DNA from: an uncultured Gemmatimonadales bacterium
GTDB taxonomy: Bacteria; Gemmatimonadota; Gemmatimonadetes; Longimicrobiales; RSA9
Assembly (NCBI GenBank): GCA_963783305.1
Contig: CAWAMW010000006.1
Coordinates: forward strand, 64,001-128,000
Length of the DNA: 64,000 nt
Direction: 5' to 3'
Both the position numbers and the translations under genes were made by a program. Shown here in pieces: positions 4,688 through 43,625 of the stretch. Within the stretch, counting starts at the first letter, position 1; every line of letters starts with the position of its first letter. The notes under the pieces are model-generated. The model worked only from the letters and a program-made list of their open reading frames with translations. It made no database searches and was not told where the DNA came from.

Positions 4688-4701
4688 CGTCGTCCCCTGG
4701 C

Positions 4702-5985
4702 TCAGAATGCGTAGAGTATGCTGAAGCTGATCTGATCGGCCGATCGATCCAGGTGTCCGTCGTTCTCGGCCCACCGTGTGTCCGCGTGGAACCACTCCAT
4801 GGCCGCGCGCCACGCCGTGTCGTTCCATTGGAGCGACAGCGCCTGTGTGGAATTGTGGAGGCGTGAGCCGCCGCTGTCCCTCACGTCCGCGTCCACCGGA
4901 TCGTCGTAGCCGCGGAAGTACCAGAGGCCGAGCCGCGGGGTCAGGTCGTAGCCGAGCTGTGCCCATCCCCCCTGGCTGCCGATGTCCCCGAACTGGGCGA
5001 GGGCGGCGAACTGCTGACCGATGGCGCGGCCGACGTAGGCGTTGCCGTGCAGCGTGTACCGGCCCCGGCTGGCTCTGCCCCCGGCCTGGAACGCGGTCCC
5101 CGTGAGGGAGTCATCGGTGTCGAAGTGGTCACCGACCCCGCTCAGGTCCTTCCGGTCGACGTGCCCCACCGCGTACGCACCCCACTCCGCGCCGAGCGCC
5201 TGGCCTCCCACGTCGACCCGGGCCTCGAGCTGCGGGATGCCCGCTTCGCCCGCGCTCCGGTGATCCGTCACCTGCGTGGGGTCGTCCGCGTCGGTCCCGC
5301 TCCACGATCCACGCTGGGCTCCGAGCTGAATGCGGAGCTGGACCGGCGCCTCCCTGCCGAGGAGCTCCTGCTCCACCACGACGCCGGGGAACCGCCATCC
5401 GAGGAACCCCGAGCCGAGCCCCAGCGGGAACGCGACGTGAGCCACCGACACGGGGACGGCGCCCGTCATGGGCGCCCACGCCTGGCCCGCCCGGACGGTG
5501 GTGCCGCCGCCCTGGAGCTGGACGTAGGCGAGCCGGAGCCGGGGCTGGGGCTGTTCGTCGTTGAACGGACCCACGCCCGTGAAGGAGCCGAAGAAGTCGA
5601 TCTCGAGAATGCCGCTCGCGCCCCATCGGGAAGGGCTGTTCGTGGTGGCCGCGGTCAGGCGGAGCCGCGTGTTGCGCACGTCCCCGCCTATGAACCAGGG
5701 ATCCACGTCGTCCGACCGGTTGGCCGCGAACACGGCGCTCTGACCGTTGCCGAAGCCGAACGACTGGTTCTGGACGAAGCTCGTCGCCGCCACGAACCCG
5801 CTGACGCTGAGCGTCACGCCGGGGATGGGGGCGGGCGCGTCGGCCGAGTCCCCGGCCACCGGGATCGAGTCGGGCGCCAGCACGGCGGGCACGAGGACCG
5901 CCTGGGCGTGAACGGGTCCAACGGCGATACCGACGCCAGCCAGCGCGCTGAGCAGGAACGGCCGCAGGGAAGATCTTCTGTTCAT
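4702..5985 (-). CDS. Outer-membrane porin-like beta-barrel (DcaP-like)
   Basis: Signal peptide, [28 protein letters not shown] motif, alternating beta pattern, C-terminal Phe (ILYAF). Confidence 0.7.
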
Positions 5986-6556
5986 CCGTCAGACTCCGAA
6001 TCGAGTTCATGGGCAGCCGACCGCTCGGTCTTGCCTCGGGCTGTCGGAGAGCGTCGGGTCCACGCGGGAATACTTGAGACCGGAGCTCTGGACGCCGCTC
6101 CGCGCGCGGCTCAAACCGGATGCACCCTCCCCGATCACCCGCAACTCGCATCGATGCGCACCCCAACGCTGCCCGACGCCCGCCGTGGCGCGCGCCGCTG
6201 TTCGCGCTGCTGGGCGCCGCCGTGGTCGCACCGGCGGGGGACGAGCGGGTGGCCGCCCGCTGGGCGCACGTCGACAACGTGCTCCAGCGCCGGGCCGATC
6301 GGATCCCACGGGTCGCGGCCGTGGTGGGGGCGGAAGCGGCCCACGAGCGAGCGGTGGTGGAGACGCTGTCATCGGCGCATCGCGACCACCGGGGGCCAGG
6401 GAGGCGGCCGTCCGCGCTGCCCCCTCAGCCGCAGCCAGGCCTCGCTCGCAGCCACTTCCCGCGGGCAGCAGCGCTTCCCCGGTCGGGCCCGTCGCTGGCG
6501 CGACTCCCCGCCTCTCCATAGCATGTCCCTGCTGCTCAATCATCATCGGAGGAACC

Positions 6557-8506: not shown

Positions 8507-8536
8507 CCGCTCCCCGCCCACCCTTTTCGGGACCCG

Positions 8537-9454
8537 CTAGCCCTCTTCCGTGTGTGTGTCGGCGCCATAGAAACGGCGCGCGGGAGCGTGCACGTCCACG
8601 GCGTCCGTCCGGCTGCGTTCCTCGGAAGGGCTATGCCCGCCCCCCCCGGTCCCGGCACGCTCGAAGAAGTCGTCGACAGCCAGGGCATGGTTCTGTGTCA
8701 GCGGCAGCCCGCCGTATTGCGGGTATTCCGCGAGATCCGGCGCGAGCAGACCGGCGACCACTACCTTCTTGGATCCGTGGTCCAGCCGCACACGCTCGCT
8801 CGGCAGCAGGACATGTCGGTCCACCGGCTCGAGCGCCAGCGTCTTCTCGTCCACCGCGACATCCAGGTAGCGGGCCTTCATCTCACCCGTGGCGACCAGG
8901 AGCTCCGAGACGCGACCCACGGTTTCACCCTCGCCCGTTACGACCTTCCACCCGCGAGGGTCATCGCCGCCGACCTCGTACTCCTTCTCCAGATCGGCCA
9001 TCCGACGCAGCTCCACCGGCTCCCTGACCGCCCGCACCCTCCCGGTATCGGCCTCCCCGGTTTGGATGACCTCGCCCGCTTCCGTGCCTCTGCCCTGCCG
9101 GCTCGCCCCACCGTAATACGCGCGCAGCCGGCGCTCGTAGCTCTCATCGAGCGTCTCCGGCTCCATCACGTATTCGGGCGCCTCCTCGAGGCGCTCCTTC
9201 GTGACACCCTCTACCCACACGGTGTCTCGTTCCCGGTCCGCGCGGGCCTGGTCGAGAGGGATGAGGACATGCTTCTTCATGAACCCGAGGTCCACCTCGA
9301 GGTAGCTCAACTGCCCATCGGCACCGAGCAGCATGTCGTCCACCTGTCCCGCCTTCTTGTCATCGGACGCCGTCCGAACGGTCCAGCCACGGACGTCCCA
9401 CGTACCCGCGGGGAACTCGAACGCGTCCACACGGGAGATCGGTCGCAAAGCCAT
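8537..9454 (-). CDS. Protein with two PRC-barrel domains
   Basis: GGAGG RBS; two copies of D(V/P)RGW.V....G.V..(M/L)L......YL.VD....HVL(I/L)P. Confidence 0.8.
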   Translation of the reverse strand: MALRPISRVDAFEFPAGTWDVRGWTVRTASDDKKAGQVDDMLLGADGQLSYLEVDLGFMKKHVLIPLDQARADRERDTVWVEGVTKERLEEAPEYVMEPETLDESYERRLRAYYGGASRQGRGTEAGEVIQTGEADTGRVRAVREPVELRRMADLEKEYEVGGDDPRGWKVVTGEGETVGRVSELLVATGEMKARYLDVAVDEKTLALEPVDRHVLLPSERVRLDHGSKKVVVAGLLAPDLAEYPQYGGLPLTQNHALAVDDFFERAGTGGGGHSPSEERSRTDAVDVHAPARRFYGADTHTEEG

Positions 9455-9647
9455 GAGCTCCTCCAGCACAGGGGTTCCACTCCTCCGGTGGACGGGGGGG
9501 CAAGGGGAGTGCCACGACGAACCCGCGAAACGATCGGAAGCAAACACCTGGCGGTGAACGCCCGAGCGTGCGCATTATGGAGTCCTCCCCGGTGGGCGCG
9601 CCGCGCCCGATCAGTCGACCAACCCGAACACATCCAGCAGCCCGACA

Positions 9648-10946
9648 ATGGCTCCATTGCACTCGAAACTCGCGGTGATGCTTCTGCTCTTCCTCCCCGC
9701 CTGTGGCACCGTTGCGGGCGGCGTGTCCAACTCGCCGGTCGGGCGACGGGCGCACACCGGGGTCGCCGACGCGGGTGCGGAAGACTCGGCAGTCCTCCGG
9801 GAGGGGGCGCTCGACGGCACGGCGTTCGGCGCGGCCGACGCGCCGCGGATCAGACTGGAAGGGCTCGCCCTTCCCAGTACGCCCGGCGCATTCCTCTACC
9901 CCAGCTCGGGAGAGCTGCCCGAAGAGATCCAGAGCCAGGTGGAGCAGTTCATCCACGCGTTGACGGACGGCCGAGCGAGCGGACGATACGGTCGGTGGCT
10001 CGACGGGGAAGCGGTGTGGGGTGACTGGATCCGCGCGGAGCTCCGGGATGCAGGCCTGCCCCAGGACCTCGTCTACCTGGCCATGATCGAGAGCGGGTTC
10101 CACCCCGCGGCCGTCTCTCACGCGGGCGCCGCCGGGATGTGGCAGTTCATGGCTCCGACCGCCCGTATGTCAGGCCTCCGAGTAGACGACTGGGTGGACG
10201 AGCGACGGGAGCCCGAAGCGGCGACTCATGCGGCGATACGTCACCTCTCCGACCTCTACAAGGCGACGGGCGACTGGGCCCTGTCCGCCGCGGCCTACAA
10301 CGCCGGGCTGGGCCGGGTGACCCGAGCGGTGGCAGGGGAAGGCGAACGCGACTACTTCAGCCTGTCCCTGGCCGGACGCCTTCCGCGTGAGACCCGTGAA
10401 TACGTACCCATCATGCTGGCCGCCGCGTGGGTCGACCGCCATCGCGCGGAGTACGGGATCCCGCCCCGGGAGCCGCGCGGGCGGCCGGTCAGCGATTCCG
10501 TTCATCTCGAGGGCCGCACCCGCCTGTCCGTGGTCGCCGACGGGCTGGGGATCCGGCGGGATAGCCTGAAGGCGCTGAACCTCCACCTCGTCCGGGGCGC
10601 CGTGCCCCCGACGGGTGGGATCGTTCGTGTGCCCGTGGCGAGCGACACGGGAGCGCTCTCCGTTCACCTCGCCAGTCTGTCCCGCGAACAGCGGCTACTC
10701 CCCGACTGGATCGAGACCCACTACTCCGTTCGGTCCGGAGACAGCTGGTGGGCGATCGCCCGCCGCCATGACACGACCGTCGACGCGCTCCGTGCCCTCA
10801 ACCCCACTCGCCGCGATGTGATTCATCCAGGCGACCGGCTCATCGTTGCTCGCACAGCCGCATACGACACCGGCCCCGGGAAAGGGTCCCCGACGCCCGC
10901 GGCGGCGCCTCGCGCCTCACCCTCGGCCAGGAACGATATGAAATAG
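9648..10946 (+). CDS. MltD-like lytic transglycosylase (SLT plus LysM), probable lipoprotein
   Basis: LAMIESGF, AAGMWQFM, AAYNAG, ETREYVP; LysM YSVRSGDSWWAIARRH...LNP...IHPGDRL. Confidence 0.9.
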   Translation: MAPLHSKLAVMLLLFLPACGTVAGGVSNSPVGRRAHTGVADAGAEDSAVLREGALDGTAFGAADAPRIRLEGLALPSTPGAFLYPSSGELPEEIQSQVEQFIHALTDGRASGRYGRWLDGEAVWGDWIRAELRDAGLPQDLVYLAMIESGFHPAAVSHAGAAGMWQFMAPTARMSGLRVDDWVDERREPEAATHAAIRHLSDLYKATGDWALSAAAYNAGLGRVTRAVAGEGERDYFSLSLAGRLPRETREYVPIMLAAAWVDRHRAEYGIPPREPRGRPVSDSVHLEGRTRLSVVADGLGIRRDSLKALNLHLVRGAVPPTGGIVRVPVASDTGALSVHLASLSREQRLLPDWIETHYSVRSGDSWWAIARRHDTTVDALRALNPTRRDVIHPGDRLIVARTAAYDTGPGKGSPTPAAAPRASPSARNDMK

Positions 10947-11003
10947 CCAACGCCGCTGCGGGTAGGTGAGGCGCTCGGGATGCATTTCAGCCCGACCTGA
11001 AGG

Positions 11004-11351
11004 TTACCCTCCGAAAGGTACTCGCCCAGAGCATCCAGGTCCGGCAGAACGACTGCGCCCGCTCCCTCCAGCCGGTCCCCCAAGGCGCCCTGCACCCGCG
11101 CCGCCCACCAGCGCCCGCGTCCCCGAAGGCGCCGCACCCGTCAGCGCCACGGTCTCCCGGGCCACCCCGTCCAGATCGAACCCGGTCGAACACCTTTTAC
11201 AGCCCCTCGCGGTCCAGCCCCCGGACCCGCACCATCGAACGCTCCACCCGTGCGGACGGGGCGCGCCGACCGCACCGGCCCCGGACGTCTTCCGCGGTGT
11301 ACAGACGATTCCCCGCGGCGTCCCGGGCTCCCTCGGAGGCTTTTCGTCCAC
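11004..11351 (-). pseudogene. Relic of a CarH/LitR-like MerR-family B12-binding regulator
   Basis: Collinear fragments in shifting frames: MerR wing RDAAGNRLYTAEDVR; helical-bundle VERSMVRVRGLDREGL*KVFDR (in-frame TAA); Rossmann end ALVGGAGA / LEGAGAVVLPDLDALGEYL. Confidence 0.65.
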
Positions 11352-13946: not shown

Positions 13947-14771
13947 ATGAGCCAGCAGACGGGTGAATCGTGCGGTACGGGAGGAGGGGCGTGCCCATCG
14001 ATCCGTGGAATCCCGCTCCCTCTCCTGCTGGTACTGGGGCTGTTGATCTATACGGTGGCCCAGGGTGCCTGGGCGCGAGCGAGCGCGGCGGAGGTGGCGC
14101 CGCAGGATCTCCTGGAGGCCATGGCGGGGGTGGAGCGGTCGTACATCACGGCGCTGTGGGCGACGGGGAACGGCACGCCGGCGGAGGCGGTAGCGAGTGT
14201 GGCGCGGCTCAGGGCGGCGTGGTCGAAGTTCGAGGCGGAGCGGGGTGCGGAGCTGTCGCGGCTGGAGGGTGGGGCGGAGGCGGGGTCGCTGGTATCGGAG
14301 CGGATCGAGGCGGCGGCGTCCCTTGCGTCTGAGGCGCCGTCGCGGGCCCACGAGGTGCTCGAGGAGATCCGGCTACGTCTGCGGGAGCTGCGCGTGGCGA
14401 ACGGGCTGGAATACTTCCCCGACCGCCTGACTGCGTACCACGAGCCCATGGAGGCGATCGTGATCGCGGCAAAGTCCGGGGGGCCTGCGGGCCCGGGGCC
14501 GGAGGCCGTGGCGGAGATCCGGGCGACGCTTCCGGAGGCTATGGAGAGCTGGGCCGCCCTCGAGGCCGCGCCCCACGACAACGCCGTGTATGGGCTGACG
14601 CCTGAAATGCTGCGGCGGCGCGAGAAGCTGCTGGCGGCGGAGCGATCGGCCCTCGAGGAGCTGGCCGGCGCCCTGGAGGCCGGGGACGCGCGGGCCGTGG
14701 GACGGGCCGGCACCGCGCTCAAGCCGGTCTTCGCCCGGATCGTGCTCCTGTACGGTGAGCGCGACGGCTGA
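13947..14771 (+). CDS. Hypothetical exported all-helical protein
   Basis: [12 protein letters not shown]; hydrophobic N-terminal segment; AHEVLEEIR and YHEPME His/Glu motifs; coding-like GC3 bias. Confidence 0.65.
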   Translation: MSQQTGESCGTGGGACPSIRGIPLPLLLVLGLLIYTVAQGAWARASAAEVAPQDLLEAMAGVERSYITALWATGNGTPAEAVASVARLRAAWSKFEAERGAELSRLEGGAEAGSLVSERIEAAASLASEAPSRAHEVLEEIRLRLRELRVANGLEYFPDRLTAYHEPMEAIVIAAKSGGPAGPGPEAVAEIRATLPEAMESWAALEAAPHDNAVYGLTPEMLRRREKLLAAERSALEELAGALEAGDARAVGRAGTALKPVFARIVLLYGERDG

Positions 14772-14840
14772 GGGCGCGGTAGGGAAGTTGCAGCGGGGAC
14801 CCGCACCGGCAGGCGCAGTTCGACAGGGATGGAGGGGCAA

Positions 14841-15827
14841 ATGGAGCGGAGGCGACTGGGGTCGCACGGGTTGGAGACATCGGCCGTTGGACTCGGCTGC
14901 ATGGGGATGAGCGAGTTCTACGGCGAGACGGAGGAGGGGCGGGGGATCGAGGTGATCCACCGTGCGCTGGACCTGGGGGTGGAGCTGCTGGACACGGCAG
15001 ACATGTACGGCCCGTTCACGAACGAGGAGCTGGTGGGGCGGGCGATCGGCGATCGTCGCGACAACGTGGTTCTGGCAACGAAGTTCGGGAACGAGCGTCG
15101 CCCCGACGGCACCTTCGTGGGCGTGAACGGTCGTCCGGAATACGTGCGCGAGGCGTGCGACGCGTCGCTGGCGCGGCTGGGGGTGGAGCACATCGACCTG
15201 TACTACCAGCACCGGGTGGACCCGGACGTTGCTATCGAGGAGACGGTGGGTGCCATGGCCGAGCTGGTGGCCTCGGGGAAGGTCCGCTGGCTGGGGCTGT
15301 CGGAGGCGGCGCCATCGACGATCCGGCGGGCGCACGCCGAGCACCCCATCAGCGCACTCCAGACCGAGTACTCGCTGTGGACCCGGTTCGTAGAGGCGGA
15401 GGTCCTGGCGACGGTCCGCGAGCTCGGGATCGGCTTCGTCGCCTACTCCCCCCTCGGCCGAGGATTCCTCTCCGGTCGGATCCGGAGCCCGGAGGACCTG
15501 GCGGAAGACGACTGGCGTCGGGAGAACCCGCGCTTCCAGGGCGACAACTTCCGGCGCAATCTCGAGCTGGTGGACCGGGTGCGCGGGATGGCCGACGAGA
15601 AGGGGCTGGAGCCGGCGCAGCTGGCGCTGGCGTGGCTGCTTCACCAGGGAGACGACATCGTGCCCATCCCCGGCACCACCCACCCCGACCACCTCGAGTC
15701 GAACGTGGCGGCGGTCGAGGTCGAGCTGGACGAGGGGGAGCTGGCCCGGCTCGACGAGCTCGCGCCGCCCGGGACCGCCGCCGGGGACCGGTACCCCGAG
15801 CAGGGGATGAAGGCGGTGAGCCGGTAG
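14841..15827 (+). CDS. Aldo/keto reductase
   Basis: [47 protein letters not shown]. Confidence 0.95.
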
Positions 15828-32405: not shown

Positions 32406-33848
32406 ATGCGTCACACGAAGACCCTCTGTACCCTCGTTCTGGGTGCGGTGGTCGTCTCCGGCTGCGCCGATGATGCCACCTCCCCCACCTCCCTCGCCCC
32501 CACCGAGTCCCTCGCCTCCCTCTCCGCCGGCACCACCTCGAGCGACAACCAGCTCGTGGTGTTCAAGAAGTCCCGGATTCCGAACGGCTTTGCCGCGCAG
32601 GTCGCCGCGCTCGGCGGCAACGTGGAGCTCACGATCAGCACGGCGGGCGCCGCCGTGATCAGCGGTGTGGACGCAGCAGGCCTCGACGCCATCCGCGCGA
32701 GCAGCGACGTGGACATGGTGGAGCCGGAGATCATGCTCGAGCTGCCAGAGCCCTTCGAAGTGGGGGTAGCGACCGCCGCCGACGCCGCGCCCGCGAGCCC
32801 CGGCGACCCCAGCGCCGCGTACTTCTTCCCGCGCCAGTGGAACATGCGCGCCATCGGCGCCGACGTGGCGTGGGCGGCCGGGAACACCGGCTCGTCTGAT
32901 GTGACCGTCGCCATCCTCGACACGGGGATCGGCTACACCCATGAGGACCTGGTCGGGCGGGTCGATCTGAGCCGCTCGGTCTCGTTCGTCCCAGACGATG
33001 ATTTCTACGTCGCGTATTACTTCCCTGGTGCCCACCCCATCGCCGACATTGGCTACCACGGCACTCACGTCGCCGCGACGGTCGCGAGCAACGGGATCGT
33101 CGCGGCCGGCGTCACCTCGCAGACCACGCTCATGGGCGTCAAGGTCTGCAGCGTGGTGACGGGTGGCTGCTCGGGTAGCGCCATCTTTGCCGGCATCGAG
33201 TACGCCGTGGACAACGGGGCGGATGTGATCAACATGAGCCTCGGGGGCGCCTTCCAGAAGAAGGACTATCCCGGGTACGTCTCGGTCCTCAACCGCCTCT
33301 TCAACTACGCACACCAGAACAAGGTTACCGTGGTCGTTTCGGCAGGGAACGAGTCCGCCGACCTCGACCACAACTACTATCCGGACGACGACGACGTGCA
33401 GACGCACTACCCGAGCCTGTACAAGACGTACTGCTCGACGCCCAACAACATCTGCGTCTCGGCCACCGGCCCCACGGCCGCCGCGTCCAACATCGGACCG
33501 TGGACGAACGTGGACGCACCCGCAGTGTACACCAACTACGGCCGCTCCGCCGTGAATGTGGCGGCGCCCGGTGGAAACACCGGCGCGGGCGTGATGGCCG
33601 CCTGCTCGACGTTCAGCCTCGTCATCCCGGTCTGTCAGGCGAACGGCTACGCCGTCACCCTCTCCGGCACCAGCATGGCGGCGCCGCACGTCACCGGCCT
33701 GGCAGCGCTCATGGTGGCGCAGTACGGCAAGAACCCGGCGAAGGTCCGGGCCGCGATCCAGCAGTCGGCGGATGACCTCGGACAGCCCGGGACCGATCCG
33801 TTCTACGGCAAGGGCCGCATCAACGTGGCGCGGGCGACGGGCAACTGA
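32406..33848 (+). CDS. S8 subtilisin-like serine peptidase (lipoprotein)
   Basis: Lipobox VSGC; catalytic triad AILDTG, HGTHVA, GTSMAAPHV; oxyanion SAGN. Confidence 0.95.
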   Translation: MRHTKTLCTLVLGAVVVSGCADDATSPTSLAPTESLASLSAGTTSSDNQLVVFKKSRIPNGFAAQVAALGGNVELTISTAGAAVISGVDAAGLDAIRASSDVDMVEPEIMLELPEPFEVGVATAADAAPASPGDPSAAYFFPRQWNMRAIGADVAWAAGNTGSSDVTVAILDTGIGYTHEDLVGRVDLSRSVSFVPDDDFYVAYYFPGAHPIADIGYHGTHVAATVASNGIVAAGVTSQTTLMGVKVCSVVTGGCSGSAIFAGIEYAVDNGADVINMSLGGAFQKKDYPGYVSVLNRLFNYAHQNKVTVVVSAGNESADLDHNYYPDDDDVQTHYPSLYKTYCSTPNNICVSATGPTAAASNIGPWTNVDAPAVYTNYGRSAVNVAAPGGNTGAGVMAACSTFSLVIPVCQANGYAVTLSGTSMAAPHVTGLAALMVAQYGKNPAKVRAAIQQSADDLGQPGTDPFYGKGRINVARATGN

Positions 33849-33986: not shown

Positions 33987-34505
33987 ATGACCAACCGTAT
34001 CGAGGCCTTCTTCAGGCGACGCATGCAGCTGCCCTCCAACGGCGACGAGTCGGCCGGGGGCGGAGGGTCTGCTGGGGCGGCTATACCGGATCCGGAGGTC
34101 GTGGCCGCGGCCGAGGCCCGGCACCGGCTCCACCTCGCCGCCTGCGCGCTCCTCCTCGAGCTCGCCCACGCCGATGACCAGTTCACCCCCGAGGAGGCCA
34201 CGCACATCGAGGTGGTGCTGCGCCGTCATTTTGACCTGAGCGAGGAGGAAGCGCAGCAGCTGATGGAGCTCGCCGAGCAGGAGCGATCTGGTGCGGTGGA
34301 CCTCTGGCAGTTCACCAGCCTCATCCGCGCCAGCTACGACATCGGCCAGAAGACGCTCCTCGCCGAGGTCATGTGGGGGCTCGTCCTGGCCGACGGAGAG
34401 ATCGCGCGCCACGAGGCATACCTCCTCCGCAAGATCGCCAACCTCCTGGATCTGGAGCCCGGATACCTCTCTGCCGCCCGGAAGCGCGCCGCCAGCGACG
34501 ACTGA
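33987..34505 (+). CDS. TerB-family protein
   Basis: ALLLELAHAD..F..EE, DLWQFTSLI, MWGLVLADG....E...LRKIANLL. Confidence 0.85.
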   Translation: MTNRIEAFFRRRMQLPSNGDESAGGGGSAGAAIPDPEVVAAAEARHRLHLAACALLLELAHADDQFTPEEATHIEVVLRRHFDLSEEEAQQLMELAEQERSGAVDLWQFTSLIRASYDIGQKTLLAEVMWGLVLADGEIARHEAYLLRKIANLLDLEPGYLSAARKRAASDD

Positions 34506-34590
34506 AAACCCGCGGCGGCCCGCGCTGAAACTGGTGACGCGCCGCGCCCGTATCGGTCTCCGGCACTCACGCCCACCGGAGGCCCCCCGC

Positions 34591-37020
34591 ATGCCCGAAC
34601 TCCTCAGTGACGTTCGCTACGCCATCCGCTCCCTCTCGAAGCGCCGCGGCTTCACCCTGGTTGCCGTGCTCTCCATCGCCCTCGCCATCGGCTTCAACAC
34701 CGCCATCTTCAGCGCGGTGAACGCGCTGCTGCTGCGGCCGGTGCCTGGTGTCGTCGGGGCCGATCGGGTGGTGGAGCTCGGCCGTACCAATCGAGGCAGC
34801 GGGTTCGACTCGTTCTCCTATCTCGATTTTCGGGACCTGAGGGAGAACGTGGAAGAGCTCTCGGAGCTCTCCGCGTGGCGGATGTTGCCGGTGAGTCACG
34901 GCGCTGAAGAGGGTGGAGAGCGGGTGGTGGCCATGGTGGTGTCGCCCGGGTACTTCCCGGCGCTGGGGGTGACTCCGGCGGCCGGCCGCTTCTTCGCCGC
35001 CGATGACGACGTGCCGGGCGTGAGCCCCGCCACCGTCGTGATCAGCCACGCTTTCTGGCAGACGCGGCTGGGCGGCGCCCCCAATGTGGTGGGCTCCACC
35101 GTGGACGTGAACCGGACGCCGTTCACGATCATCGGCGTGGCGCCGCCGTCGTTCCGCGGCCATTTCCCCCTGGTCGGCGTGGAGCTGTGGCTGCCCGTGG
35201 CGCGGATCGACCTGGCGGAGCCGTCCTTCAACACCACCAACTTCGATCGGCGCGGCGCGATCTGGCATCAGGTGATCGGACGCCTCGCCCCGGGGGTTAC
35301 CATGGAGCGCGCCGAGCTGGCGGTGCGGTCGGAGATGGCCCGGCTCGCGGAGGCCTACCCGGAGACCAACGACACCCGTGGGGCCACCCTGGTGGAGCTC
35401 GGCCCCGTGCCGGGTGGGGGTCGCGGCATGATACGCGGGTTCCTGGGCGCGTTGCTCGCCCTGGTGGGCCTGGTGCTGCTGGTGGCGGCGGCAAACGTAG
35501 GGGGCATGCTCCTGGCCCGCGGCGCCGCCCGCGAGCGGGAGGTGGCCATCCGGATCGCCCTCGGATCGGGGCGCGCCCGGCTGGTCCGGCAGCTCACGGC
35601 GGAATCGGTCCTGCTGTTCCTCGCAGGCGCGGTGGTGGGGCTGGCGCTCGCGTGGTGGGCTTCGAGCCTCGTCTCCGTGATCGCCGCACCGGGGCTCGAG
35701 ATCACCCTGGACCTTGCGCCCGACCGCACCGTCTTCGTCTTCACATTCGGGATCGCGCTGGCCACGGGGCTCCTGTTCGGGCTCGTGCCCGCGCTCCAGA
35801 CGTCGCGGCCCGAGCTTGTCTCCTCGCTCAAGGACGAGGGCCGGACAGGGCGGCGCGGGACCCGCACGCGTCGCCTGTTCGTGGCCTTCCAGGTGGGCGT
35901 CTCGATCATTCTGGTGACCGCGGGGGGGCTCCTGGTGCGCTCCCTCCAGGAGGCCAGGCAGGTGAGTCCCGGGTTCGACGCCGAGGGAGTTCACCTCGTG
36001 ACGCTGGACCTCTCACTCGATGGCTATACCGACGAGACGGGCCCTGACTTCCAGATGGAGATGCGAAACGCCCTCGCGGCGCGGCCGGGCGTCAGCCACG
36101 CCGCCCTCGCCGTCGACCTGCCCATGGACCTGTCCGAGTGGGGCAACGCCGTGTGGCCCGACGGTTGGGAGGACCCCGAGGGGCGCGGCATGTCCGTGGA
36201 CGCCAACTTCGTCTCGGCCGACTACTTCGAGACGCTCCGGATCCCGGTGGTCCGCGGCCGCGGGTTCACCGACGGCGACCGCACCGGGAGCGCCCCGGTG
36301 GTGGTGGTGAGCGAGACGCTCGCGCGCGAGGCGTGGCCCGAGGGCGATGCCATCGGGCAGCAGATCCGCTGGAACGAGCGGGAGAGCGAGCCGCGCACCG
36401 TCGTAGGGGTGGTAGCCGATACGAAGAATCAGACGCTCGGCGAGCCGCTGGACGGCATGATCTACCTGCCCCTTATGCAGGAGTACCAGGGCGCCGTGAG
36501 CGTCCTGGCCCGCGGGCCAGGCGTCACTCCCGCCACCCTGCGGTCCGCGCTCCTCGAAGCCGATCCACGGCTCGCCATCAGCGCACCCCAGACGCTCGCG
36601 GAGATCACGGCCGTGGGGCTGCTCCCGGCCCGTGTGGCCGCCTACGTTGCCGGTCTCCTGGGAGCGCTCGGGCTCTTCCTGTCCGCGCTCGGCATCTACG
36701 GCGTTGTGGCCCATGGCGTGGTTCAGCGGCGGCGGGAGATCGGGATTCGCATGGCCATCGGCGCGGAGGCCGGTCGTGTGCTGCGGGGCGTCATCAACGA
36801 TGGGATCCGGCTTGCGCTCCCGGGTCTGCTGCTGGGCGCGGTTGCCGCGCTCGTGGTCGCCCGGTTGATTCGGGGAATGCTCTTCGGCGTGTCCCCGACC
36901 GACCCTCTGACGCTCGTTGCCGTGGCGCTCCTGCTCCTGGCCACGGTGGCCGTGGCCAGCTGGGTGCCGGCGCGGCGCGCGGCATCCGTGGACCCGGTGG
37001 AGGCGCTCCGGGCGGAGTAG
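34591..37020 (+). CDS. Duplicated MacB/FtsX-type ABC permease (ADOP-like)
   Basis: DVRYAIRSL, ALAIGFNTAIFS, REREVAIRIALG.GRARLVRQL, RRREIGIRMAIGA, PARRAASVDPVEALRAE. Confidence 0.92.
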   Translation: MPELLSDVRYAIRSLSKRRGFTLVAVLSIALAIGFNTAIFSAVNALLLRPVPGVVGADRVVELGRTNRGSGFDSFSYLDFRDLRENVEELSELSAWRMLPVSHGAEEGGERVVAMVVSPGYFPALGVTPAAGRFFAADDDVPGVSPATVVISHAFWQTRLGGAPNVVGSTVDVNRTPFTIIGVAPPSFRGHFPLVGVELWLPVARIDLAEPSFNTTNFDRRGAIWHQVIGRLAPGVTMERAELAVRSEMARLAEAYPETNDTRGATLVELGPVPGGGRGMIRGFLGALLALVGLVLLVAAANVGGMLLARGAAREREVAIRIALGSGRARLVRQLTAESVLLFLAGAVVGLALAWWASSLVSVIAAPGLEITLDLAPDRTVFVFTFGIALATGLLFGLVPALQTSRPELVSSLKDEGRTGRRGTRTRRLFVAFQVGVSIILVTAGGLLVRSLQEARQVSPGFDAEGVHLVTLDLSLDGYTDETGPDFQMEMRNALAARPGVSHAALAVDLPMDLSEWGNAVWPDGWEDPEGRGMSVDANFVSADYFETLRIPVVRGRGFTDGDRTGSAPVVVVSETLAREAWPEGDAIGQQIRWNERESEPRTVVGVVADTKNQTLGEPLDGMIYLPLMQEYQGAVSVLARGPGVTPATLRSALLEADPRLAISAPQTLAEITAVGLLPARVAAYVAGLLGALGLFLSALGIYGVVAHGVVQRRREIGIRMAIGAEAGRVLRGVINDGIRLALPGLLLGAVAALVVARLIRGMLFGVSPTDPLTLVAVALLLLATVAVASWVPARRAASVDPVEALRAE

Positions 37021-37042
37021 GGCCGCTGGTGCGCCTCGAGCC

Positions 37043-38236
37043 TCAGTCGCTACGGTTCTCGAACGTCCCGCGCACCACCACCTCGCCCTCCTCGACCATG
37101 GGACGCCCGCGGGCGACGACCCAGGAGACCTCGAGGTCGGCGCCCAGCAGGAGGAAGTCGGCGTCCGACCCGATGGCGATCCGCCCCTTGCGGGGGAGGC
37201 GGAGGAGACGGGCGGGCGTGAGGGTGACGGGTCGGAGCGCGTCGGCGAGGTCGAAGCCGTGGTCGCGGACGGCATCGCGGACTTCACCCCACAGCGTGTC
37301 CGGGCGGCCCGTGGTCAGCCGCTCCAGCTCGCCCTCCGCGTCGAACGAGGGAAGGGAGCCGCCGGCGTCGGAGCTGAACGTGATGTGGTCGAGGGGAACG
37401 CCGTCGTCGACGAGTTCGCGGAGTGCGAGCGATGGCTTGACCTCCTCGTCGGAAAATGCGGGCCAGGCGGAGGTGGTGATGTCCAGCGTCGCGCTGCGGC
37501 CGTAGACCCTGGCGTGCTCCAGCACCGCGCGGCTCCGATTGGCGTGCGTCGGGTGGAACTGGCGCCAGGTCAGCTCGCTGCTGCCCACCGCTTCGCGGAT
37601 CAGCCGGAACGGGTCGTCGGCATCGCCAATGTGGAGGTGGACCAGGCCGCACTTCCCGCCCAGGAGCCCGCCCAGCCGCACGGCCTTGGCCAGCCGGACC
37701 AGCTCCTGGACCGTCGGGCTCGACGAGCGGTGATCGGCGATGGCGATCTCGCCAGCGCCGATCACCTCCTCGACCAGCGCGAGATCGCGGGTGAGGTCGC
37801 CGGTGAGGGTGGGCGTCGGGATCGGGTACGCGCCCGTCCAGATCCAGGCGGAGATGCCCTCGGCCCGCAGCGCCTTCGCCTTCATCAGCACGGAGTCCAC
37901 GGTCCGCGTCGCGCCATCGGCCCCAAGCAGCCCCACGACCGTGGTGGTGCCTCCTTCCACCAGCGACGACAGCGACAGCTCTGGCGTTCGCGTCGCCGGG
38001 CCGCCCTCGCCGCCCGCGCCCGCGATGTGCACGTGCCCGTCGATCAGCCCCGGGACCAGGGGCGCTCCGCCGGCATCCACGACCCGGGCCCCGAGCGACT
38101 CCGGCACCGTCAGATCGGGCTCGATGGCGACCACGCTGCCACCCGCGCAGAAGACGTCGCGGCGGCCCATGGCCTCGGGCGCGAACACGTCCGCGTTCCG
38201 GATCAGCAGCGGCGCGGGGGCGGTGTGGGACATCAT
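37043..38236 (-). CDS. iadA: Isoaspartyl dipeptidase (beta-aspartyl peptidase)
   Basis: PGLIDGHVHIAGAGGEGG..TRTPE, GTTTVVGLLG.DG, GEIAIADHRSS, HLHIGD, PTH.NR, SSDAGGSLP. Confidence 0.95.
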   Translation of the reverse strand: MMSHTAPAPLLIRNADVFAPEAMGRRDVFCAGGSVVAIEPDLTVPESLGARVVDAGGAPLVPGLIDGHVHIAGAGGEGGPATRTPELSLSSLVEGGTTTVVGLLGADGATRTVDSVLMKAKALRAEGISAWIWTGAYPIPTPTLTGDLTRDLALVEEVIGAGEIAIADHRSSSPTVQELVRLAKAVRLGGLLGGKCGLVHLHIGDADDPFRLIREAVGSSELTWRQFHPTHANRSRAVLEHARVYGRSATLDITTSAWPAFSDEEVKPSLALRELVDDGVPLDHITFSSDAGGSLPSFDAEGELERLTTGRPDTLWGEVRDAVRDHGFDLADALRPVTLTPARLLRLPRKGRIAIGSDADFLLLGADLEVSWVVARGRPMVEEGEVVVRGTFENRSD

Positions 38237-38285
38237 CGGTGATTCCTTTCCTGGCTCGGCGCGAGCCGGCGGTGGGGGTACGTCT

Positions 38286-39812
38286 TCACCGGTATCCGAT
38301 GGCCACCGCCAGGACCACGAAGGCCGAGGCCGCGATCAGCAGTGCCAGCAGGAACTTCCAGATGAACCGCGCCCAGATGGCCCAGTCGACGCGAGCGACG
38401 CCGAGGGTGCCAATCAGCGCGCCCGACGTGGGGACGATCAGATTGGTGAAGCCGTCGCCCAGCTGGAAGGCGAGGACCGCCACCTGACGGGTGACGCCGG
38501 CGAGGTCGGCGAGTGGGGCCATGAGGGGCATGGTGAGCGCGGCCTGCCCGGAGCCGGATACCACGAAGAAGTTGAACACGGACTGGAAGACGAGCATGAG
38601 CCAGGCGGACAGCGCGCTGGGCAGGTCCCGGATGAGCAGACCGGCCTCGTGCAGCAGCGTGTTCAGGACCGTGGGCTCGGTGGGAGAGTCGCCTCCCAGG
38701 ACCAGCACGATCCCCTTCGCCATGCCGACGATCAGCGCGGCATCGAGGATGTCTCGAGCGCCGGCCTTGAACCCCGTCCCGATGTCGTTGATGCCCATCC
38801 CGTTCAGATGGAACGCGGCCCCGATCACGCCCGCGACCACGCCCATGACGAAGAACTGGCTGGCGATCTCGGGGATGTAGTACTGGTGCTCGATCACGCC
38901 CCATATGACCCAGACGATCGTCGCCAGGACAGTCAGCAGGACGAGTTTGTGTCCGAAGGTGAACGCGAGGTCCGGGCGGCTCGGGTCCGGGGCCTCGTCG
39001 GCGAATGGGTCGGGGAGCCCGTGGAGCGGTGAGCGCGACGGCTCGCGCCGGACCCTCTGGGCGTACCACCACGTCCAGCCGGTGCCGAAGAGCGTGAAAA
39101 ACGTCCACATGACGATCCGGAAGGGAGCGCCGGAGAGCACCGGTATCTCCGCCACCCCCTGGGCGATGGCGATGCTGAACGGGTTCATCCACGACGTCGC
39201 GAAGCCGATCTGGGTGGCGACGTAGGTGATGAGGACCCCGACGATGGCGTCGTAGCCGAGGGCGATGACCAGCGGCACCAGGATCATCGCGAATGCGATC
39301 GCCTCCTCGCCCATTCCGAAGACCGCGCCCCCGAGCGAGAACAGCACGAACATCACCGGGATGAGGAGCGCCTCCGCCCCCGCCGTGCGCTGGATCACCG
39401 CCATGATCCCGGCTTCGATGGCGCCCGTCCGGAGCACGATCCCGAAAGCGCCGCCGATGATCAGGATGAACGCTACCACGCCGATGGCCGCGCCCCACTT
39501 GCTCCCCGAGACCAGCCCCTCGAACGCGTAGTTGAACAGCCCCACCTCGCCACCGGGCGCGAAGAGAGGGACACCCCGGTGGACCGGCTCGCCCACTTCG
39601 TCGCGGAGCAGCTCGAAGCTGCCGGGCACCAGCACCTCCCGCTCCTGAACCGCGCCCGCCGCGTCGGTGAAGCGGATCAGGGTCGTGTCGAACGAGCCGG
39701 CGGGGATCAGGTACGTGCATGCCGCCGCGAAGAGGATGACGAAGAAGATGATGACGTACGTGTCGGGCGCCCGGAAGCGAGGTGCCCCCGGGCTGCGCGC
39801 GGCCGCGGGCAT
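38286..39812 (-). CDS. yfcC: YfcC-family (putative basic amino acid) transporter
   Basis: PDTYVIIF, GMGEEAIAF, QIGFATSWMNPF, SGSGQAALTMPLMAPLADL.GVTRQVAVLAFQLGDG; about 12 TM. Confidence 0.88.
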   Translation of the reverse strand: MPAAARSPGAPRFRAPDTYVIIFFVILFAAACTYLIPAGSFDTTLIRFTDAAGAVQEREVLVPGSFELLRDEVGEPVHRGVPLFAPGGEVGLFNYAFEGLVSGSKWGAAIGVVAFILIIGGAFGIVLRTGAIEAGIMAVIQRTAGAEALLIPVMFVLFSLGGAVFGMGEEAIAFAMILVPLVIALGYDAIVGVLITYVATQIGFATSWMNPFSIAIAQGVAEIPVLSGAPFRIVMWTFFTLFGTGWTWWYAQRVRREPSRSPLHGLPDPFADEAPDPSRPDLAFTFGHKLVLLTVLATIVWVIWGVIEHQYYIPEIASQFFVMGVVAGVIGAAFHLNGMGINDIGTGFKAGARDILDAALIVGMAKGIVLVLGGDSPTEPTVLNTLLHEAGLLIRDLPSALSAWLMLVFQSVFNFFVVSGSGQAALTMPLMAPLADLAGVTRQVAVLAFQLGDGFTNLIVPTSGALIGTLGVARVDWAIWARFIWKFLLALLIAASAFVVLAVAIGYR

Positions 39813-39818
39813 ATCCCT

Positions 39819-40703
39819 CTAGTCCTCGATCACGCGGCGGCGGGCGAGGTCGTACCGCTGGCCGCTGCCGAGGATGTGCAGCGTGAGACCGTGTCCCACC
39901 AGGTCCCCACCCGCGGTTGTAGCTACGCCGGCCGCGTTGGAGGCGTCGATCACCATCACAGTGTTCTCGCCGAAAACCTCGAAGCTGTCAGGGTCCCGCA
40001 CGATGATCGCGGTCGACTCGTCGATCCCCACGCCCACCAGCTGCGGGTTCTCCAGCACCAGCGAGATCAGCCGGTTCTGCCGTTGCCGGGCGATGAAGTG
40101 CTGGTCGATGATCACCCGAGCGACGAAGCCGAAGCCCGGGGCCGTCATGACATTGCCCCGCTCGATCGTGGTGAAGGAATACTCGGCGTCCGGGTGCAGC
40201 GCCTCGTCACCGGTGATCATGATCTCGCTCATGATGGCGGCGCCAGCGCTCGTGCCCGCCAGGACACCCCCTCCGCGGTGGATCTCGCGGACCCGGTCCA
40301 GGAGCCGCGTGTCCAGCATGTGGGCGGTGAGCCGGTTCTGGTCCCCGCCGGAGAAGAAGATCCCGGTGACGTCATCGAGCGCCGCGACGATGCTGTCATG
40401 GTTCGCGGTGATGCTGTCGAACCGGACGAAGGAGACGTCGGGGCAGCCGGCCTCCTCGAGCTGCCAGCTCTGGTAGAGCGCCACGTCCAGCGGGTCGGAG
40501 CTGGCCATGGGGATCACCACCATCCGACACGCGTCCCCGCCCGCCAGCTCGACGATCTTCTCCATCATGTAGTGCGGCCGGCTCCCGCCCCCGATGATGA
40601 CCAGCGGCCCCGGGTCGCGCCGGGGCGAGAAGGCGGCGAACAGGATCAGAGTCCCGAGCAGCAGTCCCGCCGTGCCCGTTCCCGCGACCACGCGTCGATT
40701 CAT
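39819..40703 (-). CDS. cphB: Cyanophycinase (peptidase S51) with N-terminal signal peptide/anchor (CphE-like)
   Basis: LVIIGGG, IPMAS, FSGGDQ.RL, GTSAGAA, IIDQHF..RQRQNRL, GIDESTA; MNRR plus hydrophobic leader; GGAGG RBS. Confidence 0.9.
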   Translation of the reverse strand: MNRRVVAGTGTAGLLLGTLILFAAFSPRRDPGPLVIIGGGSRPHYMMEKIVELAGGDACRMVVIPMASSDPLDVALYQSWQLEEAGCPDVSFVRFDSITANHDSIVAALDDVTGIFFSGGDQNRLTAHMLDTRLLDRVREIHRGGGVLAGTSAGAAIMSEIMITGDEALHPDAEYSFTTIERGNVMTAPGFGFVARVIIDQHFIARQRQNRLISLVLENPQLVGVGIDESTAIIVRDPDSFEVFGENTVMVIDASNAAGVATTAGGDLVGHGLTLHILGSGQRYDLARRRVIED

Positions 40704-40907
40704 GGCGTTCCTCCAACAATGTGTTGACCGCAGGGTGTGCGGCTGTTGCGGGGCAACATGCTTTCGGCGGAGGGCACGGTCAACCTGGGTCAACAACCTC
40801 CGACGGGGATCGAGATTCGGATGCGGATTCGGTGGCGGTGTTCCGCTCCGGAGCAGGGCTGCCGCAGATGGGGTTGGGGCGCACACAAGTTGCATATACC
40901 ACATCCG

Positions 40908-43625
40908 ATGACCGACTCTGTGACGGATACCGCGCCACCGTCCTCAACCTGGGGGCTCCACTCATCGCTTCCGACGACGAACGTCTCGGAAGTGCTGCGG
41001 CGCGTGGCCCACGTCGCCCGCGACCTGACGGGGGCCTACGGCGCGTATGTGGAGCAGGTGGTGGACGGTGAGGTGGAGGTGGTGGCGGTGGTGGGGGAGG
41101 GCGCTCCACCGTTGAGCACCCGGATCGCGTACCCTGGCTCGGTGACCGAGGAGATCGCGCAGGGTGGGCTTCCGGTCACGGTGCCGGAGCTCGGCGAGGA
41201 GTCGGCTATCGTGCCGTACCTCGGGAAGAGCTGTGCGAGTTGCGGGTTCCTCCTCGCACCGCTCATGGCGGGGGAAGAGCTTCTGGGCGCGCTCGTGCTC
41301 CTGAGCCGCGCCCGAGGTCACTTCGGTTCCGACGACATCGCCACGCTCCGATCGCTGAGCGAGCTGGCGTCCGTGTCGCTCCGGCTGGTGGGGGAGATCA
41401 GCCGCGAGCGCGAAGAGCGGACGGCGCTGCTGGATTCCACCGGAGAAGGCATCTATGGGATCGACCCGGCGGGGCAGTGCACGTTCATGAACCGCTCCGG
41501 GGCCGCTCTCCTCGGCTATTCGCAGGACGAGGTCCTGGGTACCAACCTGCACCGTCTGATCCACCACACGCGTCCCGACGGCAGTGCGTACGAGGAGGCC
41601 GCCTGCCCGATCTACGATGCCGCGCGGGCGGGGAAGGGGGTGCGGGTGGAGAACGAGGTGCTCTGGCGGAGCGACGGCTCGTCCTTCCCCGCCGAATACG
41701 CGTCGCACCCGATCCGGGAGGACGACCGGATCCTCGGCGCGGTGGTGACCTTCCGTGACATCTCGGAGCGAAAGCGGGAGGAACAGCGCCGGGCCCACCG
41801 TCTCGAGCGCGAGCGCTTCCTCGCCGAGGCCAGCGCCGTGCTCGCGTCGTCGCTGGACTACGAAACCACGCTCGACCAGGTCGCCCGGCTCGCCGTGCCG
41901 CGCATGGCCGACTCCTGCGTCATCGACGTGCTGGACAAGGACGAACGGCTGAACCGAGTGGGGGTGGCCCACATCGATCCCGGGATGCAGCGCGTGCTCG
42001 CTACCGCGCGGCCGCACGCGCCGCCCCCCGATTCGGGTAGTCCCGCGCTGGCAGCGCTGGAGGGGGCGGAGCCCGTCCACGTGCCGGTGGTCACCGACGA
42101 ATGGATCGAGAGGGTCGCCCTCGATCCCGAGCACCTCGACGTCCTGCGGAGCCTGAAGCCACGCTCCGTGATGATCGTTCCGCTCCTCGGCGCCGGACGC
42201 ACCGTAGGTCTCTTCTGGCTCGCCCGCACCGACCCCGATCGCCCCTACGATGCCGACGAGCTTGCACTCGCCGTAGAGCTCGGCCGCCGGGCCGGCGTAG
42301 CCGTCGACAACGCCATGCTCTTCGCCGGCGCCGAGGAGGCCCGGGGCGAGGCGGAGCGCCGGGCTCGCGAGGAGGCGGCGCTCCGGGAAGCCATTCAGGC
42401 GGTGGCCGCCAGCGCGTCCACCGAGGAGGTCATCCATCGGATCGCCGGGAGCGCCGTGCGGGCGACCAACGCTGATGGGGCGTTCGTTGAGCGCATCGAG
42501 CACGACTGCGCCGAGACGCTCGTGGTGGCCTCCGCCGGAGAAACCGCTCCGGCGGTGGGGGGTCGGCTCCGCTACGAAGGCTCGTTCACCGAGTACGTGG
42601 TGGAGCGGGCGCAGCCCCTGGTGGTGCCCCGGATCGCCGACGCCGAGCGGGGCCTTCCGGGCGAGCTCGCCCGCGCCCGCCCCGACGACGCCATGCTGAT
42701 TCTCCCGCTGGTTGATGGAGGCGAGCCCATTGGCTCGCTCTATCTCATGCGCCGGTCGGAGAAGTGGCAGTTCCGCGAAGACGAGGTACAACGCGCGCTG
42801 GCGTTCGCCGAGCTCGCCGCCCTCGCCTTCCGCAAGATCCACATGCTCGAGGACTCCGAGCGGCGCCGTGAGGAAATCCAGAGGGTGATGGAGAGTCGCG
42901 CCCGCCTCATGCGCGGGTTCAGTCACGACGTGAAGAATCCCCTCGGCGCCGCCGACGGGTTCCTCCAGCTCCTGCAGGACCAGGTCGTGGGCCCTCTCAC
43001 CGAAAAGCAGGCCGAGCATCTGCGGCGCGCCCGCCGCTCTATCCATAGCTCCCTGGACCTCATCGAGGACCTCCTGGACCTCGCACGCGCGGAGGCCGGC
43101 CAGCTGGAGATCGAGTGGGGGCCCGTGGACCTGAGGGATGCCACCCGCGAGCTCGCGGAGGAGTATCGCACACAGGCCGACCGGAAGGGCATCGCCATGC
43201 ACCTCGAGCTGCCCGACGAGCTGCCCGTCATCCGCAGCGACGCGACCCGCGTACGGCAGGTCCTGGGCAACCTCCTCTCCAACGCGGTCAAGTATACCGA
43301 TGAGGGACGGATCGCCGTCCGTGTCGATCGTCGCTCGACCGGCGCCTCCGGCCCCGCCGACGCACCCGAGCGCGCCGGTGAGTGGGTCGTCGCGGAGGTG
43401 AAGGACACCGGCCCGGGCATCCCTGCAAACCAGCAGCGGCGGCTGTTCGAGGAGTTCACCCGCCTCGACCCCGGCGAGAAAAGCGGTGCGGGCGTCGGGC
43501 TCGCCATCAGTCAGCGCATCTCGCATGCGCTCGGCGGCGAGATTGCCGTCAGCAGCGAGCCCGGCGAAGGCTCCGTGTTCACCCTGTGGCTGCCTCGCGC
43601 AGCCCCGGACGGCGCCGACGACTGA
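40908..43625 (+). CDS. Cytoplasmic sensor histidine kinase (GAF-PAS-GAF-GAF-HisKA-HATPase)
   Basis: PAS EGIYGID..G.CTFMN...FRDISERK; H-box [38 protein letters not shown]. Confidence 0.92.

Follow-up and report, generated by a model that had tools for sequence, protein, structure and literature searches.

How would a bacterium in whose genome no cyanophycin synthetase was found make use of cyanophycin, and which carrier would bring the released dipeptide into its cytoplasm? The question is raised by three adjacent genes on a stretch of 64,000 nucleotides (nt) from an uncultured Gemmatimonadales bacterium (contig CAWAMW010000006.1, positions 64,001 to 128,000; the whole stretch is referred to as the window), which encode a cyanophycinase, a YfcC-family carrier and the isoaspartyl dipeptidase IadA. 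The reading that we favor, at a probability of about 0.7, is that this bacterium, lacking a detectable synthetase gene (cphA), digests the cyanophycin of other organisms outside the cytoplasm, imports the resulting dipeptide via YfcC and cleaves it inside.

The three genes are co-oriented on the minus strand, head to tail, with spacers of 6 and 49 nt at 39813-39818 and 38237-38285, which confirms the arrangement described in the original prediction. The features of the locus are the following.

39819..40703, minus strand: cyanophycinase (peptidase S51), 294 amino acids (aa), with an N-terminal signal or anchor (TIGR02069 and Pfam S51)
40635..40703, minus strand: codons 1-23 with a predicted Sec signal or signal anchor, consisting of MNRR and a hydrophobic stretch of 19-21 residues (Kyte-Doolittle)
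40710..40714, minus strand: GGAGG ribosome-binding site, 6 nt upstream of the ATG at 40703 (read from the sequence)
39813..39818, minus strand: spacer AGGGAT, 6 nt, from the cyanophycinase stop codon to the yfcC start (sequence)
38286..39812, minus strand: YfcC-family carrier (DcuC/ArcD-type), 508 aa, proposed beta-Asp-Arg importer (NF008611 and Pfam DcuC)
38237..38285, minus strand: yfcC-iadA spacer, 49 nt, without a terminator-like site; a AGGAAAGGA box precedes the ATG at 38236 (sequence)
37043..38236, minus strand: isoaspartyl (beta-aspartyl) dipeptidase IadA, Type I (Glu-bridged), 397 aa, without a signal (TIGR01975 and 1ONW alignment)

The longest open frame of the cyanophycinase gene spans 39819-40904 and thus extends beyond the ATG at 40703. 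The latter was taken as the real start because the GGAGG motif lies 6 nt upstream and homology to CphB starts at residue 32 counted from there. A consensus scan of 36700-41100 for promoters and terminators found nothing, which is weak evidence in a genome of 70% G+C. Based on the gaps of 6 and 49 nt, the Shine-Dalgarno boxes, the lack of a terminator-like site and a 3.6-kb block shared with relatives (see below), we assign cyanophycinase, yfcC and iadA to a compact three-gene operon.

The first gene product scored 178.6 bits against TIGR02069 (curated NCBIfam cut-off 126.6; 178.8 bits in the whole-genome search), Pfam S51 was in agreement, and the gene is present as a single copy in the genome. 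Residues 32-291 align with Synechocystis CphB (3EN0), and Ser152, His202 and Glu229 fall on the triad positions of CphB, whose histidine and glutamate we take to be His174 and Glu201. The CphB nucleophile Ser132, the Ser/His/Glu triad and the list of pocket residues (after Law et al. 2009) are given in the accessible part of PMC3235067. The pocket is kept as well, with Gln122, Asp200, Gln201, Arg206, Arg208 and Arg211 corresponding to CphB Gln101, Asp172, Gln173, Arg178, Arg180 and Arg183. In the chain of entry 7UQW, alanine replaces the triad serine. To judge from its active site, the window cyanophycinase looks active; its predicted substrate is cyanophycin and its predicted product beta-Asp-Arg.

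The N-terminus of the enzyme (MNRRVVAGTGTAGLLLGTLILFAAF/SPRRD) contains its sole hydrophobic segment (residues 5-23, mean Kyte-Doolittle value 1.92), situated in an extension of about 30 residues that precedes the start of the alignment with the cytoplasmic CphB. Orthologues of 79% identity (L090 and L091) begin MHRHVARARPAALLLGAFLLAGF.., their n-region being clearly positive and their C-flank neutral, and the yfcC-adjacent cyanophycinases of three uncultured, unrelated organisms (L045, L067 and L071) carry a hydrophobic leader up to the conserved (L/V)(F/V)IIGGG motif. As a control, the N-termini of 20 cyanophycinase genes, from about 100 matches in a sample of 151 genomes of the phylum, were compared; 10 of these genes lie directly beside cphA and 10 do not. 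A hydrophobic, signal-like N-terminus was present in all 10 cyanophycinases encoded away from cphA versus none of the 10 cphA-linked ones, and several leaders of the unlinked group end in an AxA-type or lipobox-like motif. Identity of the window enzyme amounts to 38-45% with the unlinked group and to 32-38% with the cphA-linked group. It is therefore likely, as far as N-terminal sequences can tell, that the cyanophycinase is exported or membrane-anchored with its catalytic domain outside the cytoplasm, and the extracytoplasmic location proposed earlier gains support from both the hydrophobic segment and the contrast within the phylum.

The absence of a cyanophycin synthetase from the 64-kb window, already noted in the original prediction, was borne out and extends to the genome as assembled (4.35 Mb in 17 contigs, 95.96% complete, so that about 4% may be missing), in which the best TIGR02068 match reached 120.5 bits against a cut-off of 850 and cphA was thus not found. 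In a sample of 121 genomes of the order, YfcC was detected in three, the organism's own (G000) and two from a different genus within its family (G182 and G227), and these two relatives gave no cphA match at E<=1e-40. In G000, G182 and G227 the three genes form a single 3.6-kb block with 79% nucleotide identity over window positions 37058-40637, the carrier gene lies directly between those of cyanophycinase and IadA in each (3/3), and the flanks do not align. In two genomes of the same genus (95% and 94% complete), neither cyanophycinase nor a YfcC of this type, IadA or cphA was found; DNA-level flank matches in these fragmented assemblies comprised a fumarate hydratase gene and short stretches only. 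Because the three genes are jointly present or jointly absent within the family, they can be regarded as one accessory unit, and the operon marks an accessory ability that is patchily distributed within the family. Recent transfer is not claimed, since the operon block (79%) is as diverged as the neighboring fumarate hydratase gene (79-81%), which has a housekeeping function. The iadA gene of G227 (G227:C6:1231738-1232887; L090, about 9706-10885) is spread over two frames that cover model positions 3-177 and 178-389 and lie 2 nt apart, the result of either a frameshift or an assembly error. The organism's own genome also contains a distant second DcuC/YfcC paralogue (G000:C2:2330-3721; 327 bits to NF008611, below cut-off), and four further genomes of the phylum sample gave matches to similar paralogues only.

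The last gene of the operon encodes a protein with 426.4 bits to TIGR01975 (NCBIfam cut-off 331.25), in agreement with Pfam Amidohydro_1, and an end-to-end alignment with E. coli IadA (1ONW, residues 1-394, E = 1.9e-92). The binuclear metal ligands of the E. coli enzyme, His68, His70, the bridging residue 162, His201, His230 and Asp285, are matched by His68, His70, Glu163, His202, His231 and Asp290, with Glu163 replacing the carbamylated Lys162. The possibility that glutamate at this position is an anomaly was rejected, as it is the normal Type I state, which the accessible part of Park et al. (PMC5517026) assigns to all IadAs outside Enterobacterales. Kyte-Doolittle analysis found no hydrophobic segment in IadA, which is predicted to be cytoplasmic.

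The carrier encoded between the two enzymes scored 742.9 bits against NF008611 (cut-off 500) and 410 bits against Pfam DcuC, is 52% identical to E. coli YfcC over its full length (510 columns) and has at least ten hydrophobic segments; no PDB relatives were found at E<=1. Among 7997 candidates scored, 5855 proteins were related to it at E<=1e-20, and its identity to Bacillaceae proteins is about 64%. We know of no member of the YfcC/ArcD family shown to carry a dipeptide, nor of an established substrate for YfcC. Gene neighbors were surveyed in one genome per species for the best 80 of 446 confirmed YfcC relatives (54-73% identity), with partners counted within 7 kb. The expected co-occurrence of yfcC with iadA was evident, with an IadA homologue at 46 of these 80 nearest loci: iadA follows directly downstream on the same strand at 39, precedes yfcC on the same strand at three and is located divergently upstream at four (Synergistota). 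The distance between the two matches had a median of 120 nt and was approximately 350 nt or less in 42 of the 46 cases. In a FastTree phylogeny of 82 YfcC sequences (L083 was excluded for want of a full open reading frame, and L072 has a suspect long branch), the pairing appeared in Bacillota (Bacilli and Clostridia), Synergistota, Spirochaetota and Alteromonadaceae, in addition to the Gemmatimonadota clade of the window.

At the 34 loci without IadA, 123 neighboring genes were annotated. Eight Vibrionaceae loci (L064, L073, L076, L077, L078, L080, L081 and L087) have an AstE/AspA-family zinc hydrolase gene directly beside yfcC; all eight products share only the Pfam AstE_AspA catalytic domain. 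The hydrolase gene stands right after yfcC, at about 8500-9650 of the locus, and in L080 two copies flank yfcC. The identification of these neighbors with the dipeptidase CphZ was rejected on the basis of a PDB search with the L078 protein (Vibrio thalassae), which gave 2QJ8 and the deacetylase DoeB as best matches; the CphZ-like entries 3FMC (2.3e-8) and 3LWU (7.7e-6) matched in the N-terminal part only, and no CphZ-named entry was listed. No cyanophycinase was found in the genome of V. thalassae, the sole Vibrio genome checked. Three further loci (L045, 2048-9047; L067, 614-7928; L071, 158-7452) encode, in this order, an M20 (PepT-like) peptidase, a leader-bearing cyanophycinase (TIGR02069, 188-202 bits), YfcC, an RpiR regulator and a TonB-dependent receptor. 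As IadA is absent from these clusters, the M20 enzyme may replace it there.

Because yfcC repeatedly adjoins the gene of a cytoplasmic beta-aspartyl dipeptidase, and elsewhere those of other N-acyl/dipeptide hydrolases, YfcC would be the importer of the dipeptidase substrate; in the window clade, where the cyanophycinase gene precedes yfcC, this substrate would be beta-Asp-Arg. The following sequence of events is proposed. A Sec-exported or anchored cyanophycinase, its active site intact and its export predicted, would cut the polymer or soluble fragments of it to beta-Asp-Arg outside the cytoplasm. YfcC, encoded between the two enzymes, would then import the dipeptide, as gene order and the conserved pairing in other phyla suggest. 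Finally, IadA, whose family and metal ligands are evident and whose cytoplasmic location is predicted, would split the dipeptide to aspartate and arginine. A wider proposal is that YfcC carriers, that of E. coli included, account for the missing secondary import of beta-aspartyl dipeptides, chiefly of cyanophycin-derived beta-Asp-Arg, and act in a two-gene module that occurs in at least six phyla and in which the hydrolase has been swapped (IadA, AstE/AspA-type or M20); we consider the arguments for and against this generalization evenly balanced.

A number of observations weigh against the proposed route, beginning with the compartment of the first enzyme. The hydrophobic core of about 21 residues together with the following Arg-Arg-Asp suits a signal and an uncleaved anchor equally well, and in the window protein alone charge sets the orientation only weakly. 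Arg-Arg-Asp being net positive, the stretch might not be an export signal at all, and the cyanophycinase would then be a cytoplasmic enzyme acting on imported oligomers or on endogenous polymer. We consider this highly improbable: cphA was not found in the genome, the stretch is missing from all ten cphA-linked and presumably cytoplasmic cyanophycinases but present in all ten unlinked ones, several of them with AxA-type or lipobox-like ends, and the 79%-identical orthologues combine a clean positive n-region with a neutral C-flank.

The distribution of the genes also tells against a strict link between carrier and polymer. In the phylum sample of 151 genomes, cyanophycinase was above cut-off in 66, cphA in 37 and YfcC in the organism's own genome only, so that most cyanophycinases of the phylum would work without YfcC. 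Among the surveyed yfcC loci, 23 of 80, including those of Fusobacteriaceae, had neither IadA nor an AstE/AspA-type partner nor an M20 enzyme with cyanophycinase; these 23 comprise L039 with an M20-family amidohydrolase gene two genes off, five loci on truncated contigs and some from Bacillaceae. In E. coli the order is ackA-pta-yfcC-yfcD with no peptidase nearby. An S51 peptidase, of the family for which the original prediction proposed a co-occurrence check, was encoded within 7 kb of yfcC at only 8 of 80 loci. A sister YfcC of 71% identity, from a Gemmatimonadota metagenome-assembled genome (L010, 2581-10669), is encoded between a Tricorn-like S41 peptidase and an S9 peptidase, next to a PIN-domain gene and with neither IadA nor cyanophycinase within 7 kb.

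Since S51 peptidases are so rarely nearby and IadA is promiscuous, the carrier may take beta-aspartyl dipeptides broadly. The corresponding alternative holds that YfcC imports beta-aspartyl (isoaspartyl) or other dipeptides in general, that yfcC-iadA is a general salvage module and that cyanophycinase was added to it in this lineage. In its favor, at 38 of the 46 IadA-paired yfcC loci no S51 peptidase is encoded within 7 kb, the IadA enzymes of cyanophycin clusters remained promiscuous (PMC10206079, in part), and the L010 carrier sits between two peptidases of other kinds. However, the carrier of the window clade is encoded directly between cyanophycinase and IadA in 3/3 genomes, the experimentally studied relatives in the family handle arginine (PMC4129364, in part), and the AstE/AspA family of the Vibrionaceae partner includes the beta-Asp-Arg-specific CphZ (PMC9974463, in part), even if the one partner searched, that of L078, shows no close similarity to the CphZ-like PDB entries. 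We rate this alternative as unlikely, although it is the more credible of the two that concern the substrate of YfcC. The dipeptides used by the other yfcC-iadA pairs may originate from other organisms, in line with a proposal made for Pseudomonas (PMC9974463, in part), or may be isoaspartyl dipeptides in general.

Several S51-like genes near yfcC differ from that of the window. In two Alteromonadaceae loci (L079, 1775-8491; L084, 1876-9651), a gene for an S51-like protein of 591-637 aa is followed by those of a TonB-dependent receptor and YfcC, and L084 also encodes IadA; the S51-like proteins reached 95-98 bits against TIGR02069, below the cut-off. In Bacillaceae and Guptibacillaceae, an S51-like gene lies 3.5-5 kb downstream of yfcC-iadA (L012, 13041-14369; L020, 13100-14437; L014, about 14743-15408), and its product has 442-445 aa, a hydrophobic N-terminal leader and 29-33% identity to the window cyanophycinase. 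A sample of 250 genomes from the phylum to which the Bacteroidetes locus L082 belongs yielded no further NF008611-type YfcC (E<=1e-150).

A further point against YfcC as a dipeptide importer is the name that NCBIfam gives to NF008611, putative basic amino acid antiporter. Streptococcal ArcD proteins, which are 44% identical to an E. coli protein listed as ArcD and in some species annotated as C4-dicarboxylate anaerobic carriers, are reported to be arginine/ornithine antiporters (PMC4129364, in part). YfcC could accordingly be an arginine/ornithine-type exchanger for free arginine, the dipeptide entering by a Dpp, Opp or other ATP-binding cassette (ABC) system like AotJQMP of Pseudomonas aeruginosa, the one importer whose role in beta-Asp-Arg uptake has genetic support (PMC9974463, in part). 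IadA carries no export signal, however, and therefore no extracellular free arginine would be available to such a carrier; nor does an exchanger give a reason for the tight yfcC-iadA pairing, seen in four phyla among the 80 loci and in the window clade, or for the other N-acyl/dipeptide hydrolases in the same position. We hold this explanation to be improbable. For the dipeptide importer that we favor, recognition of an arginine moiety is plausible in view of the arginine/ornithine antiport by the ArcD relatives, and by the same analogy transport by symport or by exchange is possible. In three Cetobacterium loci (L047, L066 and L088, 8750-11680), the genes after yfcC encode an NhaC-like carrier of the Na+/H+ antiporter family and argininosuccinate lyase; this context is related to arginine and includes no dipeptidase.

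The last weak point is the outer membrane. Cyanophycin is a large, poorly soluble polymer, and the source organism, whose YfcC finds its best matches among proteins with Gemmatimonadota names, is by lineage presumably diderm. Among the 22 proteins of window positions 18-58 kb, no TonB-dependent receptor, SusD or other outer-membrane component was found. The complete scavenging route claimed in the original prediction is thus supported in silico for the order of cyanophycinase, carrier and IadA and is incomplete for a diderm cell, because the window provides no outer-membrane step. TonB-dependent receptors do accompany cyanophycinase at four other loci of the phylum and are encoded beside yfcC at five loci elsewhere (the three M20 and the two Alteromonadaceae loci). 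The four loci of the phylum (L107, G145:C150; L106, G122:C2; L108, G108:C215; L102, G104:C84) share the order IclR regulator, signal-bearing cyanophycinase and SusC-like TonB receptor, the last of about 1010 aa. In L106, L107 and L108 the next gene is SusD/RagB-like (about 450 aa); the annotation of L102 reaches up to the SusC-like gene. Neither IadA nor YfcC was found within 5 kb of these four cyanophycinases. L106, L107 and L108 represent a SusCD-type cyanophycin locus outside Bacteroidota.

The organism's own genome has a SusCD locus on contig 17 (79000-97000; L112, genes at about 4010-11241 of the locus), in which a PD40 propeller and S9 peptidase (two adjacent open reading frames) are followed by SusC-like and SusD-like genes. 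Its SusD homologue, the only one in the genome, is 44% identical to the cyanophycinase-linked SusD of L107. By its gene content, this locus is a possible outer-membrane route for peptides. Alternatively, by analogy to CphE of Pseudomonas (PMC3235067, in part), the cyanophycinase may be secreted further, beyond the outer membrane.

The genes around the operon are read from the opposite strand.

34291-37020, plus strand: ADOP-family duplicated permease, convergent, ending 22 nt from the iadA stop codon
40737-43625, plus strand: histidine kinase of 900-plus aa, divergent, with a long N-terminal region that matches no kinase model
32406-33848, plus strand: serine protease with a hydrophobic, Cys-ending N-terminus and a weak match to a mycosin model

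The histidine kinase at 40737-43625 could be the sensor of the operon, though nothing ties the two together.

Taken as a whole, the locus is sound but largely ordinary, and its forward-looking element is the hypothesis on the substrate of YfcC, which is well supported by context. The novelty of the route had to be lowered, because cyanophycin-scavenging loci of this type are already in print; what stands is that literature naming YfcC in such loci was not found. YfcC is not named in the accessible text or supplements of PMC10206079, and in the supplements the words antiporter, transporter, permease and dicarboxylate do not occur either. Searches that mostly did not extend to subscription journals found no literature linking YfcC with cyanophycinase, cyanophycin or bacterial dipeptide transport, and none joining cyanophycinase with 'C4-dicarboxylate anaerobic carrier'. 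As a reservoir of fixed nitrogen, cyanophycin is widespread, and uptake of its dipeptide by scavengers is known genetically only for AotJQMP (PMC9974463, in part). If YfcC is a second, unrelated importer, a large family that includes a y-gene of E. coli would gain a substrate, metagenomic annotation of nitrogen scavenging would improve, and yfcC-iadA would serve as a simple marker pair for the use of beta-aspartyl dipeptides.

How the proposed system compares with known ones depends on the component considered. The cyanophycin locus of the Bacteroidetes strain L21-Spi-D4, described by Ben Hania et al. in 2017, reportedly centers on an outer-membrane complex of the SusC/SusD type. Sharon & Schmeing 2023 (PMC10206079, in part) have surveyed loci for cyanophycin scavenging that include a transporter. 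The window locus resembles the published ones in that cyanophycinase, isoaspartyl dipeptidase and transporter form a cluster in a genome that lacks cphA1, and differs from the form resembling a polysaccharide utilization locus in being minimal, with three genes and no outer-membrane SusC/SusD-type part.

Like CphE of Pseudomonas anguilliseptica and P. alcaligenes, which acts on exogenous cyanophycin, the first enzyme is a cyanophycinase of the serine type, with GxSxG, His and Glu, and has a hydrophobic segment at its N-terminus (PMC3235067, in part). CphEal, whose N-terminal Sec signal comprises 24 residues, is encoded by a gene of 1260 bp and has about 420 aa, whereas the window enzyme, compared here by description, consists with its 294 aa of a CphB-sized core plus the predicted signal; it also keeps a Gln where CphE has Thr (PMC3235067, in part, for the CphE data). 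Exported cyanophycinases without a synthetase have likewise been inferred for marine Acidobacteriota (PMC8528874).

The carrier belongs to the same protein family as E. coli YfcC and the streptococcal and haloarchaeal ArcD antiporters; the E. coli gene follows ackA-pta without a peptidase partner, and the arcD genes are part of arginine deiminase operons, unlike yfcC of the window. With the aot operon of P. aeruginosa (AotJQMP and AotO/CphZ; PMC9974463, in part), the proposed system would have in common that beta-Asp-Arg from other organisms is imported and hydrolyzed in the cytoplasm, importer and hydrolase being encoded together. The two differ in that the aot operon is without a cyanophycinase and relies on CphZ, an enzyme of the AstE/AspA fold, where the window encodes IadA, and in that a primary ABC importer there has as its counterpart here a candidate secondary carrier of the DcuC/YfcC type.

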